Shown here piece after piece: positions 48,001 to 54,000 of a DNA stretch of 64,000 nt (position 1 is its first letter; each line of letters starts with the position of its first letter). The position numbers were made by a program. Source of the stretch: Escherichia coli (GTDB taxonomy: Bacteria > Pseudomonadota > Gammaproteobacteria > Enterobacterales > Enterobacteriaceae); the NCBI RefSeq assembly GCF_965641715.1, contig NZ_OZ282453.1; one strand, written 5' to 3'.

Positions 48001-51000
48001 GGGACTCCGTGGATCCAGTCCGTACTCGGTAAGCAGAAGCCGGAAACCTACAACCTGGCGATCCGTAAGCGCATCCTCGAAACGCGGGGCGTTAAATCAA
48101 TCCTCTCTTTCAATACGACGGTGGATACCACGACCCGACGTGTCATGTTTTCCGCTGAAATCGACACTCTCTATGGAATAACGACTGTTACATCGGAGGC
48201 GTAATGGCTCTGAACCTTGATTCTCTCGGTTTATCTGCAAAGGTAACCGCGGAGGGGATCAGTGCGCCTGATTATCAGACGATACTCAGCACCCTGATTA
48301 GCTATTTTCAGCAGATTTATGGCAGTGATGCCTACCTCGAACCGGACAGCAAAGACGGCCAGATGGTGGCTCTGATGGCGCTGGCGATTCATGATGCCAA
48401 TAATATGGCGATAACTGTCTACAACTGTTTTTCACCGGCAACCGGCTATGGGGCTGCACTCACCAGTAACGTGAAAATAAATGGTATTTCACGTAAAGGC
48501 GCGACGAACTCTACGGTTGATTTGCTTCTTACAGGAACTGCCGGAACAACCATCATTAATGGCAGCGTGAAAGACAGTAATAATGTGATATGGCGTTTGC
48601 CTGCTTCAGTGGTGGTCGGCGTGGATGGTACAGTGATGGCGACCGCAACATGTTCCGTCAGTGGTGCAGTGGCGGCGCTGGCTGGAACTATCACTGAAAT
48701 TAATACGCCAACCCGTGGCTGGGTTTCGGTAACTAATCCTGCTGCGGCTACTGTTGGCTCTCCGGCAGAAACTGATGCTGAGTTACGTATCCGCCAGTCG
48801 CAAAGTGTTGCATTGCCATCAATAACCCCATTTGAAGCACTGGATGGTGCTGTTTCTAATGTTACCGGTGTAACCCGCCACAAACTCTATGAAAACGATA
48901 CTGGTTCGGAGGACGGTAACGGGTTACCGCCACACTCTGTTGCTGTAATTGTGGATGGCGGTGATGTGACGGATATTGCTCAGGCTATCAGAGGGAATAA
49001 AGGCCAGGGGACAGCCACTCACGGTACAACATCCGTTACGGTTCCGGATAAATACGGCAATCCCCATGTAATCAAATTCTCGCGTTCCAGTGATGTACCT
49101 GTTTATGCCCGGATTAAATTAAAAGTTTTTACGGGTTATACCTCACAGATAGGGCAGCAGATCCAGCAGGCTATTTCCGACTATATCAATAGTCTGATGA
49201 TTGGTGATTCGGTCCTTTTAAGTCGCATTTACTCACCGGCGAATCTTGGCGTGGTGAGTGGCGGGAATGCACGCTATTACGATATTCAGGAACTGACGAT
49301 TGGGAAATCCCAGGGGACTTTGTCGTCATCAAACATTGATATCAGATATAACGAATCTGCGTCCTGTACCCCGGAAAATATCGTTATAACGGTGGAGTCA
49401 TGAGCAAATACACCGAACTAATCACAAACTACCACGCCTCCAAACCTAAATTTCTTTCACATGTTGATCTGATGACCCGGCCGCTTATTGATGTTGCGGC
49501 TGCCACCAGAGGGCTGATTACTGCATTTGATATCGACTCTGCGGTTGGTGTGCAACTTGACATTCTGGGATTGTGGATCGGACGTAGCCGTGTTGTCAGC
49601 CAGCCTATTTCAGGTGTCTATTTCAGCTGGGATACCGACGGGATTGGATATGATCAGGGGGTATGGCAGGGACCATACGATCCTGATTCAGGATACATGT
49701 ATCTCAGCGATGAAACTTATCGTGTCATTCTTAAAGCGAAGACTGCGATTAATAACTGGGACGGACGGAATGATTCGCTTCCGGCAATTCTTGACGCGGC
49801 AACAGCAGGATCCGGGCTGCGAATGCAGATAGTCGATAACCAGGACATGACGATATCGGTCAGGGTCTTTCCTGATACTGATATTTCAGATGTATCGCGT
49901 GAGTTAATTGCGGCAATTAAACAGGGGTATCTCACAGTAAAAGCCGCCGGGGTATGGGCGGGTGGCATTGAAACACCTTCGGTGGAAACCCCATCGGAAG
50001 GCTCAAAATTTTTTGGTTTTGATATGGATAACGAATTCATCAGTGGTTTTGATGTAGGGGCATGGGGAGTATTACTCTGATGGCGAAAAATGACTTTAAA
50101 GCGTTTGCAACTGATCGGAATGCCAATGTTATGTCGCAGGAGGAATGGGAAGCGTTGCCTGCGCTTTTATCCGGATTTACAGCAGGGAAAGCATCCAGTG
50201 CGCAAGTCAATAAGGTTATTCGGCAGGCCAGCTTTATTGCTGCAGCTCTGGCCCAGTTTGTAAGTGACAAAACGCAACGGGATGTGCTTGATAATGGTGA
50301 TCTGCCCGGTTTTGTTGAATTGCTGGGATCGGGGTTTGCTGTTGAATACCTGAGCCGCAAGAATCCGTTTGGCGATATCAAATCGGATGGCACGGTGAAA
50401 ACGGCTCTCGAAAACCTTGGTTTGGGAGAAGCGGCAAAACGGAATGTGGGCAACGGGGAAAACCAAATCCCTGATATGTCTTTCTGGACGGTTACTGGTG
50501 GCAATGGAAATTTTGTGATTCGTCAACCTGACGGGCTAATCATTCAGATGGTTACTGTAAGTATAAGCGGTCCAGTGGCGATGAATGGAATGACTGATAA
50601 TGCTTATGCCATTACAGGTTCTAATAAGTCTTATATTGCCACAGCCACATTGCCCTTTGTATTTCCTAATAAGGTGCTGGGCGTTATCCCTCTGGTATCA
50701 ACAACAGCTTATGGTGGTGTATCCAGTAATATTACAGGTTCATACGCGACGGCGGTTTGTTCTTTTGCCGCTGTCAGGGGGAATAATACGATTGTGTTCA
50801 AAGTCGACAAACCACTGAATGCAGCCTTTCCTTCAGATACCAGCGTCTCAGCGTTAATCATTGGACGGTAAGAATGAACTCAGTATTCTTTTCACCCGGA
50901 AGTAAAAGTTTTTATCTGCAAGAATTGTTTCCAGAATATGAGAATGCGGGAACGCTTCCTGATGATGTTATTGAAATTACCAGAGAAACATATGAGCAAT

Positions 51001-54000
51001 TTCTTGGGCTGCATCCAGAAGGGAAAGAAATTGGCGCTGACAGTTCAGGACGGCCAGTATGGATTAATTCCCCACCCCCTTCAAAAGAGGATGAGGTGTT
51101 GACGGCTGAAATGAAAAAAATATCTTTGGTTTCAGAAGTCAATACCTACATCAATACCCATCAGTGGCCTGGCAAAGCGGCGATTGGTCGTCTGAAAGGT
51201 GACGAGCTGGAACAATATAATTTGTGGCTGGATTATCTGGACGCACTGGAGCTGGTCGATACTTCCGGTGCGCCAGATATTGAATGGCCTACGCCTCCGG
51301 CAGTTCAGGCCAGATGACATCCGGCGCGGTGCTGGTATCTGTTGCAGTCACCGCGTCAATGTAATCCAGCACAGCGTTAAGCCGGGTTGTTTCTGCCTGC
51401 GTCAGTTTCCGTCCGGCCTGTAATTTCAGTTGAATCAGACTAATGGAAGCCATTGCTGCATCAATCAGTGACTGGCGCTGTGCTTCTGCCGCTTCTACTG
51501 CGGCACCGTGTTGTGCCTCAGTATCTGTCATCCATTTTTCACCATCCCATTTATCGTATGGCGTTAACGGGGCGATAGTGGTTGTATTTTCGGGATAGTC
51601 GCCTGGTGCTGTGATTTCTTTGGCATCTCCCGTTTCGGTGTTATAGACGATTTCACCTCGATGGTCTGACACATATTCCCATGATTTTAAATCCACAGAA
51701 CGGCAAATTGTATAACCAGCCTTATATGTACCAGGAGCGTCTAAACAGGAATATGCAGGGATACCGACACCAATGGCAAGATATTCATTTGAAGTGGAAA
51801 TATATTCCCGTGTTTCGCCATCATAGTTATAGACGGTAATATTTCCCGCCTTTGTAGCAATAAACTCGCTATTTAATACAGCGTTATCCATTATGCAGCC
51901 CTCACGATATAGTTAAATGCGATATTCCGTGGGCGAGTATCGGCAGGAACGACATACATTTCACCAATTGCCCGCTCATTAGAGTTGTTCAGCAATAGGC
52001 TTGAGCCATTACTGTCATGACCCGTAATTAAGATATCATTGGACAAAATAAGTGAGCCCGTACCTGCAGGAATACCATAAATTCCCATATCAAATTTAAT
52101 ATAACCAACACGCGCGCTCTGTGCAGACATAACGCTGCGACCAGTATCTACTGAACGACCGTCATCCCAGCCACGAATAAACTCACCGCGTAAATCAGGC
52201 AATTTATTTGTCGGATAAGCCTTTGCCAGTTCCGGGTATTCTTCAGCAGAAAAAGCCGCACCATTGCATTTCAGCCAGCCTGTTGGCGGAGTGGCTGAAG
52301 GCCACGGAACAGGGACACCAACAGGTAATGCCGAACCTTCTCCCAAACCAACGTTTATGAAAATGCAGAAATAACAAGCAAATGGCATCATTCCTGCTTT
52401 TGTCAGGGGGGGGGACCATGCTTATTGGCTACGTACGCGTATCAACAAATGACCAGAATACCGATCTACAACGTAATGCGTTGAACTGTGCAGGATGCGA
52501 GCTGATTTTTGAAGACAAGATAGGCGGCACAAAGTCCGAGACCTAGGGCGGACACTGCTGTTCTTGATGCAAATTAAAGGATTAAATAGTGAGTGGCGGC
52601 CTTACTAATGTAAGGCCGCTATAATCATTTTATTAATTGCATTAATCGTGTTTTGGCCATACTTTCAATGTAATGTCCCCCAACTTTTTACCCCGTTCCA
52701 CAATATATTGCTTATGAATGTCAACTAAAAAACACTTTTAGCATTTCCGTTTTATCAGAGATACTCATTCCTTTATAATAAGATATGATTTCGGTATAGA
52801 AATCTCGCGCATACATAGATAGTTTACTTTGCTTCCATGTATTTTTATTTATAGGAGATAAAAATATTTTCAACCGCTCCATTGCTGGCGGGTGAACGCC
52901 ATCCTTCAATGTTGCAATTCTAACATAAGAGCCAAAGTCATCTCGAATTAAGTCGGACATTTGCTCACAGAAATGCATATGTTCAAACAATACCTCAACA
53001 CCTTCAACTATCTCATTATAATTTACATACGAGTCTTCATTATATAAAGCTGGTTCCACGCCTTCAATATTATTCACGGCCAAAAGATAGTTTGCAAGTG
53101 CATCTGCTTCGACTTCGAATCCAATTTTCTTTTTCTTCTTTGACTCAATATCACTAATTATGACTGATTTTTGCGGATGCTCGAGTATGTGGTGGGCAAT
53201 TTCGTGCATGAGTATAAAATCGATTTGGCATTCTGTTATGAATTTAACACGTTTAACTGAATCGTTGAATAAAATAGTGGGAGGTATATAAGCAATGCAC
53301 TCAACATTCGTACAGAGATAAATAACTAATGGGATAAAATGATTTATTGCTCGATAAGCCCGCGGGCGATGACTCATATGTGTAGTTGAGTAAAAATGCT
53401 CTAGTTGTCTATTAAACTCAAATAAAACATCACGTAACGCATAATTAGCCGTGATAAATCTAATTCCATCTTTGTTTGCACTGGTTGCGTTCATTCCTCG
53501 TTTTTTAATAGGAAAAAAAGCTATATTGTGTAATGATGATTCTTTAATAATCTTATTTGGTATATGTGATAATAAACGCAATTGACTAAATCTCATCCAA
53601 TAGGGGAGGAGTTTTTTGGTTTTATCAAAATTCTCTGCCATCTTACCAGATGCTGCCGCTAACGTTTTTGCAAGCGATATTTCATGCTCCTGCATCGCCT
53701 TGAGCATGTTGTTAGAATTAGGTTCGTTCCAACTCATTACAAATGTATTCCTAATTCCTGAAAATATAGTTTCCCATATTTTTTGGTCATGATAATTACA
53801 TGCACTTGTTATCAATTCCTTCTGAGTATCAGATAGCTCAGGAAAAGAACTGTAGTCAACGACCATGAAAGACTCTAGGTCTATAACCATATTAAATCTA
53901 TTTCCACCGAGCTCCTTCCTGCAAGACTCAGGAACCCCGAGGTACGTTTCGGCCATGATAATGTCTATTTGGTGCTGCTTTAGCAAGATATCACATAGTT

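Follow-up and report, generated by a model that had tools for sequence, protein, structure and literature searches.

The locus analysed here raises the question of whether an invertible tail-fibre segment can still change orientation once the invertase gene beside it has been destroyed. It lies in a stretch of 64,000 nucleotides of an Escherichia coli contig (NZ_OZ282453.1, hereafter the window), where two crossover sites, pixL and pixR, enclose a 1.9-kb segment carrying two convergent cassettes, each with a fibre tip and a chaperone, next to a short remnant of pin (Table 1). The initial annotation regarded the segment as probably frozen unless an invertase acts in trans, and pointed to a run of nine G before the invertase start as a possible slipped-strand site. 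Taken as a whole, the evidence presented below makes it probable that this is an invertible fibre segment of the e14 P type, within the Gin/Cin/Pin class, whose own pin is dead and which can be flipped in trans, and that the G tract has no function.

Table 1. Coordinates of the features of the invertible fibre locus and adjacent DNA in the window.
Feature	Position	Strand	Description
Tail-fibre gene, window orientation	ATG 50080, stop 50871	+	
Constant N-terminal part of fibre	50080-50416	+	about 112 codons, outside the invertible segment
pixL, left crossover site	50405-50430		26 bp; half-sites CTCTCGAAAACC / GGTTTGGGAGAA, central TT at 50417-50418
Sv, expressed variable fibre C-terminus	50419-50871	+	gp53-like C-terminal domain (PHROG/Pfam)
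tfa, tail-fibre assembly chaperone paired with Sv	50874-51317	+	phrog_188, E 1.8e-55
tfa', alternative TfaE-like chaperone	51289-51891	-	silent here; phrog_105, E 1e-96
Sv', alternative fibre C-terminus	51891-52349	-	tail-collar domain, StfE-like (PHROG/Pfam)
pixR, right crossover site	52338-52363		26 bp; TTCTCCCAAACC AA CGTTTATGAAAA, central AA at 52350-52351
Orphan ORF	ATG 52391; start portion 52350-52391	-	166 aa; crosses pixR into the silent cassette, whichever that is
G9 homopolymer	52406-52414	+	Shine-Dalgarno region of pin stub
pin (invertase) remnant	ATG 52418, TAG 52544-52546	+	42 aa; 41 PinE-homologous codons plus one extra
Putative Fis-dependent recombinational enhancer	52439-52502		G-N13-C cores GTATCAACAAATGAC and GTGCAGGATGCGAGC
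Post-junction DNA common to all carriers of the truncated allele	52542-52700		strong hairpin (52593-52622) and 3' end of DUF262 gene
Lineage-specific cargo and integrase	52721-56675	-	447-aa HEXXH protein, IS3 remnant, 200-aa protein, intS

The segment is delimited by a perfect 15-bp inverted repeat (TTGGTTTGGGAGAAG / CTTCTCCCAAACCAA) at 50417-50431 and 52337-52351; its length and right arm had been correctly annotated, the left arm having been placed one base off, at 50418-50432. The repeat extends to arms of 20 nt (50412-50431 and 52337-52356) with a 95% match, and both pix sites are imperfect dyads around a central TT or AA dinucleotide, in inverted orientation to each other. Exactly two copies of the 14-mer TTCTCCCAAACCAA, forming an inverted pair, are present in the window, and a scan tolerating up to two mismatches returned three matches against a chance expectation of 0.65. 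The identities of the fibre, both chaperones and the alternative fibre C-terminus are all backed by PHROG and Pfam matches, and residues 1-119 of both fibre forms match PHROG tail-fibre families, while in the NCBIfam search neither the fibre nor the chaperone proteins received a family. The pix sites fall within the fibre ORF, so that an in-silico flip fuses Sv' in frame to the constant part, giving a fibre of 265 aa followed by tfa' through a TAATG overlap. The proposed arrangement, with one fibre C-terminus and Tfa in one orientation and an alternative Tfa' and fibre C-terminus in the other, is thus borne out by domain matches and simulated flip alike, and its assignment to the Mu G / P1 C / e14 P architecture by the sites, the cassettes, the in-frame flip and a repeat core identical to that of e14.

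The closest known relative is the P segment of e14, a cryptic prophage of K-12 with the same gene order (stfP-tfaP / tfaE-stfE / pinE / mcrA), whose repeat as printed does not differ from the core in the window (PMC12529663). e14 matches the block 52137-52539, which covers part of Sv', pixR and the stub, at 93.5% identity; for tfa', nucleotide identity with the tfaP-3'/tfaE region is 87.6%. The orphan minus-strand ORF, for which PGAP annotates an equivalent CDS in relatives, is the positional analogue of stfE, both crossing the right site; StfE and StfE2 have been described in PMC12529663. Unlike e14, the window has a pin cut after codon 41 and an expressed cassette, with its gp53-like tip, that is not stfP. 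The Mu G/Gin and P1 C/Cin systems belong to the same switch class, with S/U and S'/U' cassettes and 26-bp sites, and share with the window an invertase gene immediately to the right of the segment, the 5' part of whose coding sequence holds their enhancer and, in the window, a putative one; they differ in encoding an active invertase and in having larger segments and much longer fibres.

As initially annotated, the invertase reading frame ends after 42 codons and the sequence 3' of the junction bears no relation to pin. Homology to PinE breaks off at about 52539-52541, and in tblastn PinE residues 1-44 align to the stub with nothing beyond. What remains of an active serine invertase gene (about 180-190 aa, with catalytic domain and HTH) keeps Ser9, while the remainder of the catalytic domain is missing together with the HTH; its NCBIfam scores are far under the cut-off, and the RefSeq annotation of relatives calls it a partial “recombinase family protein, incomplete”. 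Judged from its sequence, no active enzyme can be made from the stub, and the 64-kb window contains no second Pin homologue.

By homology, the stub retains the stretch in which Gin and Hin carry their Fis enhancer. Within 52439-52502 the centres of the two putative cores are 49 bp apart, with about 96 bp between the proximal one and the crossover point of pixR; on the basis of homology, the cores are candidate Fis sites. The region is conserved at the nucleotide level among Mu gin, e14 pinE and the window, Mu gin being 78% identical to the stub with both putative cores preserved. The spacing agrees with the geometry described for Hin, in which an enhancer of 65 bp lies about 100 bp away (PMC3798978). 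A comparison aimed at selection on this region gave no signal either way: among 20 unique truncated alleles, per-site diversity was 0.045 in the enhancer region and 0.03-0.04 in its flanks, conservation thus being no higher than in the surroundings. Both pix sites and the putative enhancer region of the stub would be the surviving cis elements; since these survive, the segment may be viewed as a cis-only client switch, inert alone and invertible by a compatible Pin-family enzyme encoded elsewhere. Strand exchange at the central AA/TT would swap the gp53-like tip and its chaperone for the StfE-like collar-domain tip and the TfaE-like chaperone.

Whether such exchange has taken place can be read from relatives carrying the same truncation. 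Complete E. coli genomes with the junction and comparable cassettes divide into 67 in the orientation of the window and 79 in the opposite one. A clean inversion sets UTI89 apart from APEC O1, with 99.9% identity within the segment, 99.98% in the flanks and breakpoints placed within the 20-bp repeats, and clean inversions likewise separate near-identical prophages within ST95: serotype O1:K1:H7 holds both orientations (APEC O1 and APEC E16002), as does O18:K1:H7 (IHE3034 and UTI89). Closer to the window, an IMG/VR locus (L042) has the window's orientation with 99.984% identity over 12.6 kb, and strain TL20, of the same prophage lineage with a left flank 99.98% identical and the same unique cargo, is flipped. 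More than a flip distinguishes the TL20 segment from that of the window, its Sv/tfa half being at least 99% identical and its Sv'/tfa' half another allele. These comparisons show that, after pin had been cut, the segment inverted in ST95 prophages as well as in the lineage to which the window belongs. The inversion so documented is that of the allele family and of this lineage.

That general, RecA-type recombination between the short repeats, rather than a site-specific invertase, produced these inversions is compatible with breakpoints resolved no further than the 20-bp repeats, where any inter-repeat recombination would place them. A length of 20 bp is, however, at or under the minimal efficient substrate of RecA-dependent recombination, and the longer inverted homology between tfa and tfa' shows no matching rearrangement. 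The repeats moreover match exactly sites at which invertase action has been demonstrated, the e14 P-segment repeats having been inverted experimentally by PinE and, in trans, by PinQ (PMC12529663), and we consider the RecA explanation highly improbable. On the main reading, the observed inversions would have been catalysed by a serine invertase acting in trans, and the stub would contain a functional enhancer.

Precedents for inversion in trans exist. PinQ, an enzyme of the Qin prophage with 38% identity to PinE and encoded in a different prophage from the segment it acts upon, flips the e14 P segment (PMC12529663), and Fin of Fels-2 acts on the H segment of Salmonella (Kutsukake 2006, cited in PMC4272514). 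In both precedents the cognate invertase is intact as well, whereas here trans action would be the only route. Potential donors are frequent: 5,003 of the 5,426 complete E. coli genomes (about 92%) have matches to pinQ, pinE-3' or gin-3', and TL20 has two additional places with such Pin-like sequences. At blastn sensitivity, about half of the listed ST95-type chromosomes lack a further locus resembling pinQ, pinE or gin, in a search whose chimeric query joined an anchor to the invertase and which counts extra matching places per chromosome and not the gene matched. In ST95 lineages lacking a second locus, the responsible enzyme could come from a plasmid, be more divergent or be transient.

These missing loci weigh in favour of the contrary reading, according to which the switch is truly frozen in the source strain and the orientation differences record rare past events or cassette import. 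It accords also with the incapacity of the stub, with the lack of a further Pin homologue in the window, with the locked P segment of a K-12 pinE mutant (PMC12529663) and with the cassette replacement that accompanies the change of orientation in TL20. It fits poorly with the nearly equal frequency of the two orientations among carriers of an identical truncation, with two ST95 serotype sub-lineages each showing both states in otherwise near-identical DNA, and with the presence of Pin-like sequences in most E. coli genomes, and we judge it unlikely. Because the same truncated allele is found in both orientations, with flips in ST95 and TL20, the description of the segment as frozen is unsupported at the population level, and the qualification concerning an invertase in trans becomes the operative part of the initial claim.

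The G tract offers another possible layer of control. The run of nine G is real, although not directly adjacent to the invertase start as had been annotated, the three nucleotides ACC lying between it and the ATG of the stub; relative to the minus-strand ATG at 52391, it occupies the nucleotides 15-23 upstream. Its one-base variation relative to relatives, with G8 in TL20 and in the IMG/VR locus, where it is the sole indel over 12.6 kb, accords with a slipped-strand site, and its proximity to both starts would suit a contingency switch for translation of the pin stub or of the divergent stfE-like ORF; a one-base homopolymer difference between assemblies can, however, be a sequencing error. Tract length and variation resemble those of slipped-strand contingency loci, which have homopolymers of at least about 8 nt that differ in length between close relatives and lie within the ORF or promoter of a working gene, but the gene at the tract is a 42-codon pseudogene, and since the tract precedes a pseudogene, slippage there cannot regulate an invertase. 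A promoter scan around the tract found no sigma-70-like site on either strand. The view of G9 as an ancestral trait of pin was rejected as well: the tract is confined to the small lineage of the window, and more than 120 other alleles carry ordinary GGAG-type spacers of equal length at its position (GGGAGATCT-type). We therefore regard a contingency switch at this tract as very unlikely; the G9 is a form of the pin ribosome-binding region peculiar to this lineage, with no functional gene under its control.

The same truncation junction is present in 302 of the 5,426 complete E. coli genomes (about 5.6%) and in at least two different tail-gene backgrounds, a distribution pointing to an old and common truncation. 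In most genomes with the junction, a DUF262 gene comes after the stub. A single old event removed pin past codon 41 and put the DUF262 defence gene there; the truncated allele later spread through E. coli, into at least two tail-gene backgrounds, and in the window's lineage other cargo subsequently replaced the DUF262 gene. The 447-aa HEXXH protein of this cargo matched Lit/M48 motifs in PADLOC and Pfam below threshold only. A defence gene follows pin in e14 (mcrA), and DUF262 or other cargo follows it in the stub carriers; the site just 3' of pin thus appears as a cargo-exchange spot, occupied by mcrA in e14, DUF262 in most stub carriers and a Lit-like HEXXH protein here. The integrase gene intS adjoins a tRNA-Arg(CCU) at 56801-56875, and the host element is a complete-looking myovirus-type prophage at argW, whereas e14 is a remnant at icd. 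The tape-measure gene of the prophage is interrupted by an IS186-like element.

A more far-reaching reading joins these elements: it would be for its Fis enhancer that the 41-codon stub persists across hundreds of E. coli lineages, the segment would be a cis-only client through which the enzyme of one prophage sets the fibre state of another, and the flip may serve the host, for instance through an StfE2-like orphan protein masking receptors, the prophage being already IS-disabled in its tape-measure gene. We advance this reading tentatively and think it rather doubtful. The system itself is of an ordinary, known kind and leaves the established Gin/Cin/Pin picture unchanged. It provides a widespread and concrete case of an invertible segment that still changes orientation without its own recombinase, and illustrates that the phase-variation modules of prophages can rely on enzymes of co-resident elements. 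An annotated truncated recombinase should consequently not be taken as the mark of a locked switch.

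The prophage carrying the invertible tail-fibre segment is of the myovirus type, with genes for a terminase, head protease, tail sheath, tape measure and baseplate, the last likewise annotated in relatives, and it resides in E. coli chromosome. Its right end is marked by a tRNA-Arg(CCU) gene and an IntS-type integrase, and its left end may lie at 12696, where 16 nt of the tRNA 3' end are repeated. The segment lies towards the right end, with baseplate genes on one side and the integrase on the other. Side features of the window include tRNA-Asn(GTT) and tRNA-Thr(TGT) genes within the prophage, a 2,639-aa ORF to its left, and a two-gene insert amid the baseplate genes, in which a gene for a 258-aa protein (phrog_17809, unknown function) overlaps that of a 123-aa protein to which the annotation of TL20, a complete E. 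coli genome with the same prophage lineage, assigns a HEPN domain. The two genes possibly form a moron, or a pair resembling toxin and antitoxin, within the tail operon.

Features of the prophage and its invertible segment, in window coordinates
Feature	Position	Remarks
2,639-aa ORF	3762-11681	left of prophage
tRNA-Asn(GTT) and tRNA-Thr(TGT)	26147-26302	within prophage
IS186-like element (IS4 family)	41595-42931	13-bp target duplication GGGATTCGATCCC
Two-gene insert	45908-47036	258-aa and 123-aa proteins
Fibre gene	50080-50871	263 aa; pixL at codon 113
pixL, left crossover site	50405-50430	CTCTCGAAAACC-TT-GGTTTGGGAGAA
tfa chaperone gene	50874-51317	directly after fibre gene
Second chaperone gene, tfa'	51289-51891	strand opposite to fibre gene
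Second fibre C-terminus, Sv'	51891-52349	strand opposite to fibre gene
pixR, right crossover site	52338-52363	TTCTCCCAAACC-AA-CGTTTATGAAAA
Orphan stfE-like ORF	52350-52391 with 51891-52349	minus strand
G tract	52406-52414	G9
Invertase stub	ATG 52418 to TAG 52544-52546	42 aa
First putative Fis site	52439-52453	GTATCAACAAATGAC
Second putative Fis site	52488-52502	GTGCAGGATGCGAGC
Hairpin	52593-52622	strong; in shared post-junction DNA
Cargo	52721-55147	between pin stub and intS
IntS-type integrase	55482-56675	beside tRNA-Arg(CCU); named intS in closest complete genome
tRNA-Arg(CCU)	56801-56875	right prophage end

The initial annotation had placed perfect 15-bp inverted repeats around the segment. 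The pair is real, but its left arm (TTGGTTTGGGAGAAG) lies at 50417-50431, one base away from the 50418-50432 first proposed, with the complement at 52337-52351. The repeat grows to 20 nt at 95% identity, and the 14-mer TTCTCCCAAACCAA occurs exactly twice within the 64 kb, in inverted copies. Each arm belongs to a 26-bp imperfect dyad, which is the anatomy of the gix, cix, pix and hix sites. The proposed content, a fibre C-terminus plus Tfa facing an alternative Tfa' plus fibre C-terminus, was borne out by PHROG and Pfam matches for all four genes (tail fibre, both tips and both chaperones): the expressed tip has a gp53-like C-terminal domain, the silent one a tail-collar domain, and both chaperones match tail-fibre assembly families. 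In-silico inversion of 50432-52336 produces an in-frame 265-aa fibre that ends in the collar-domain tip, with tfa' coming immediately after it in a TAATG overlap. On the minus strand, an orphan ORF whose start lies beyond the segment crosses pixR and continues into the silent cassette. It corresponds to e14 stfE, and an equivalent CDS is annotated by PGAP in relatives; StfE2, an inverted chimera of e14 stfE, blocks adsorption of phage T2 according to a 2025 report (PMC12529663).

The closest known system is the e14 P region, whose repeat core is identical to that of the window and which shares 93.5% identity over the stub, pixR and the start of Sv', and 87.6% over tfa'. The classical examples are Mu G/Gin and P1 C/Cin, gin being 78% identical to the stub. 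The likeness to Mu G, P1 C and e14 P first noted extends to all defining features of the Gin/Cin/Pin/Hin class except an active invertase gene, which is lacking outright, and the enhancer, which is putative and recognised by homology.

As first described, the invertase gene stops after 42 codons. Alignment with e14 pinE and two E. coli prophages places the end of pinE homology at about 52539-52541, past codon 41. The stub retains the catalytic serine motif YVRVSTNDQ but has lost what follows it in the catalytic domain, as well as the whole DNA-binding domain, and hence cannot be active; a tblastn search with PinE retrieved no other match in the 64 kb. The identical breakpoint, followed by the same ~150 bp, is present in 302 of 5,426 complete E. 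coli genomes, and RefSeq labels the stub “recombinase family protein, incomplete” in each relative with annotation retrieved. Tail-gene backgrounds of at least two kinds carry this truncated allele, that of the window, with a DUF2612 baseplate protein, and a Mu-like gp45-48/YmfQ type located at ssrA in ST95 strains; the “63-aa” stubs of IMG/VR contigs represent the same junction plus a one-base insertion. The truncation is a single, widespread event, a modest new point. Separately, phage vB_EcoM-611R5, a related induced prophage, encodes a differently truncated 104-aa “DNA invertase” (L126, 7908-8222) followed by other cargo, so that pin decay beside intact segments is recurrent and independent, as is cargo exchange at this place.

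Most stub carriers, and among those listed every one except TL20, have a DUF262-domain gene where the window has its cargo. In the window this gene has been replaced, and just ~150 bp of shared post-junction DNA remain before a 447-aa HEXXH protein that weakly resembles Lit and M48 peptidases at the level of motifs, the remnant of an IS3 (about 54160-54405) and a 200-aa protein for which no family was matched. This cargo is shared by TL20 only among the 5,426 genomes, and additionally by the near-identical IMG/VR contig L042.

The truncation had been taken to freeze the switch. Searching for a constructed flipped right junction (Sv end, pixR, stub and post-junction DNA) alongside the native form, and counting only genomes with the truncated junction, we found the native arrangement in 67 genomes and the flipped one in 79. 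UTI89 and APEC O1 are both ST95 strains that carry the prophage at ssrA. They have flanks 99.98% identical and a 1.94-kb segment that is 99.9% identical yet inverted, the alignments overlapping by exactly the 20-bp repeats. Protein accessions indicate the same two opposite states in two further ST95 pairs, APEC O1 and APEC E16002 (both O1:K1:H7) and IHE3034 and UTI89 (both O18:K1:H7), which suggests more than one inversion since the truncation. Within the window's own lineage, L042 (99.984% identity over 12.6 kb) has the same orientation. TL20, with a left flank 99.98% identical to the window and sharing the cargo and the G-run, has the opposite one; its Sv/tfa half is at least 99% identical whereas its Sv'/tfa' half is a different allele, so that flip and cassette replacement both postdate stub and cargo. 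Since both orientations accompany the same truncation, including in this lineage, a frozen switch is not supported on the evolutionary scale; among its carriers, the segment has gone on flipping after the truncation, which is new, if modestly so.

Most likely, a compatible invertase encoded elsewhere would flip the segment in trans. Gin, Cin, Pin and Hin cross-complement, and DNA invertases of this class also require a Fis-bound enhancer. The e14 P-segment repeats, with the same core as the window's, were shown by qPCR and sequencing to be flipped both by PinE and by PinQ, which another prophage encodes and which is 38% identical to PinE (Kirigo et al.; PMC12529663), and a further precedent, as cited in PMC4272514, is the action of the Fels-2 invertase Fin on the H segment of Salmonella. 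The Hin enhancer spans 65 bp and lies about 100 bp from hixL (PMC3798978), and the title of Kahmann et al. (1985) places that of Gin within the invertase gene. Alignment of Mu gin, e14 pinE and the window revealed two G-N13-C 15-mers, spaced 49 bp centre to centre, of which the first is centred ~96 bp from the pixR crossover; this first block is identical in all three sequences, and the second matches e14 in full and Mu gin over the first ten bases. From this homology, we infer that they are the two putative Fis sites. They lie well within the stub, whose end is 39 bp beyond, and the stub probably supplies the enhancer, another modest addition. The segment thereby appears to keep every cis element, including this putative enhancer, and to miss just the enzyme. 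Candidate trans enzymes are common: a query of pinQ and the 3' parts of pinE and gin, the portions absent from the stub, matched 5,003 of the 5,426 genomes. TL20 has two extra matching places and UTI89, APEC O1 and IHE3034 one extra invertase-like place each; about half of the ST95-type chromosomes listed have none at blastn sensitivity. In K-12, the P segment is locked by pinE deletion despite pinQ (PMC12529663); in our reading, this deletion would remove the enhancer too.

The run of nine G noted as a possible slipped-strand site does exist, although three bases separate it from the ATG that it was said to precede directly. Among 126 loci carrying the region, GTCAGGGAGATCTACC or something close to it usually forms the 16-nt spacer ahead of the pin ATG and supplies a GGAG-type Shine-Dalgarno; the homopolymer form is found only in the window (G9), L042 (G8) and TL20 (G8). 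Its length is the sole indel between the window and L042 across 12.6 kb, which fits slippage but also homopolymer sequencing error. Across alleles, diversity in the pixR-pin region peaks in the nine bases of the Shine-Dalgarno region (0.25, compared with 0.01-0.05 on either side; window 52406-52417 and its counterparts in loci L006-L125), in full-length and truncated pin genes alike. Because it precedes a dead gene, the tract cannot regulate an invertase by changing its length. Read on the opposite strand, it is located 15-23 nt upstream of the start (52391) of the orphan stfE-like ORF, and a scan around the tract retrieved no promoter-like site on either strand. A regulatory role of the tract is unlikely.

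Overall, the initial observation is confirmed and its interpretation partly supported. The system is of a known kind, and its allele is common and already annotated; the segment would work as e14 P does, but is an incomplete member of its class, a client switch. In the window, the IS186-like element, absent from L042, interrupts the 662-aa tape-measure gene (phrog_2276). This copy of the prophage is consequently likely tail-defective, probably being unable to build tails, and whatever role the switch may have today would serve the host instead of phage host range.
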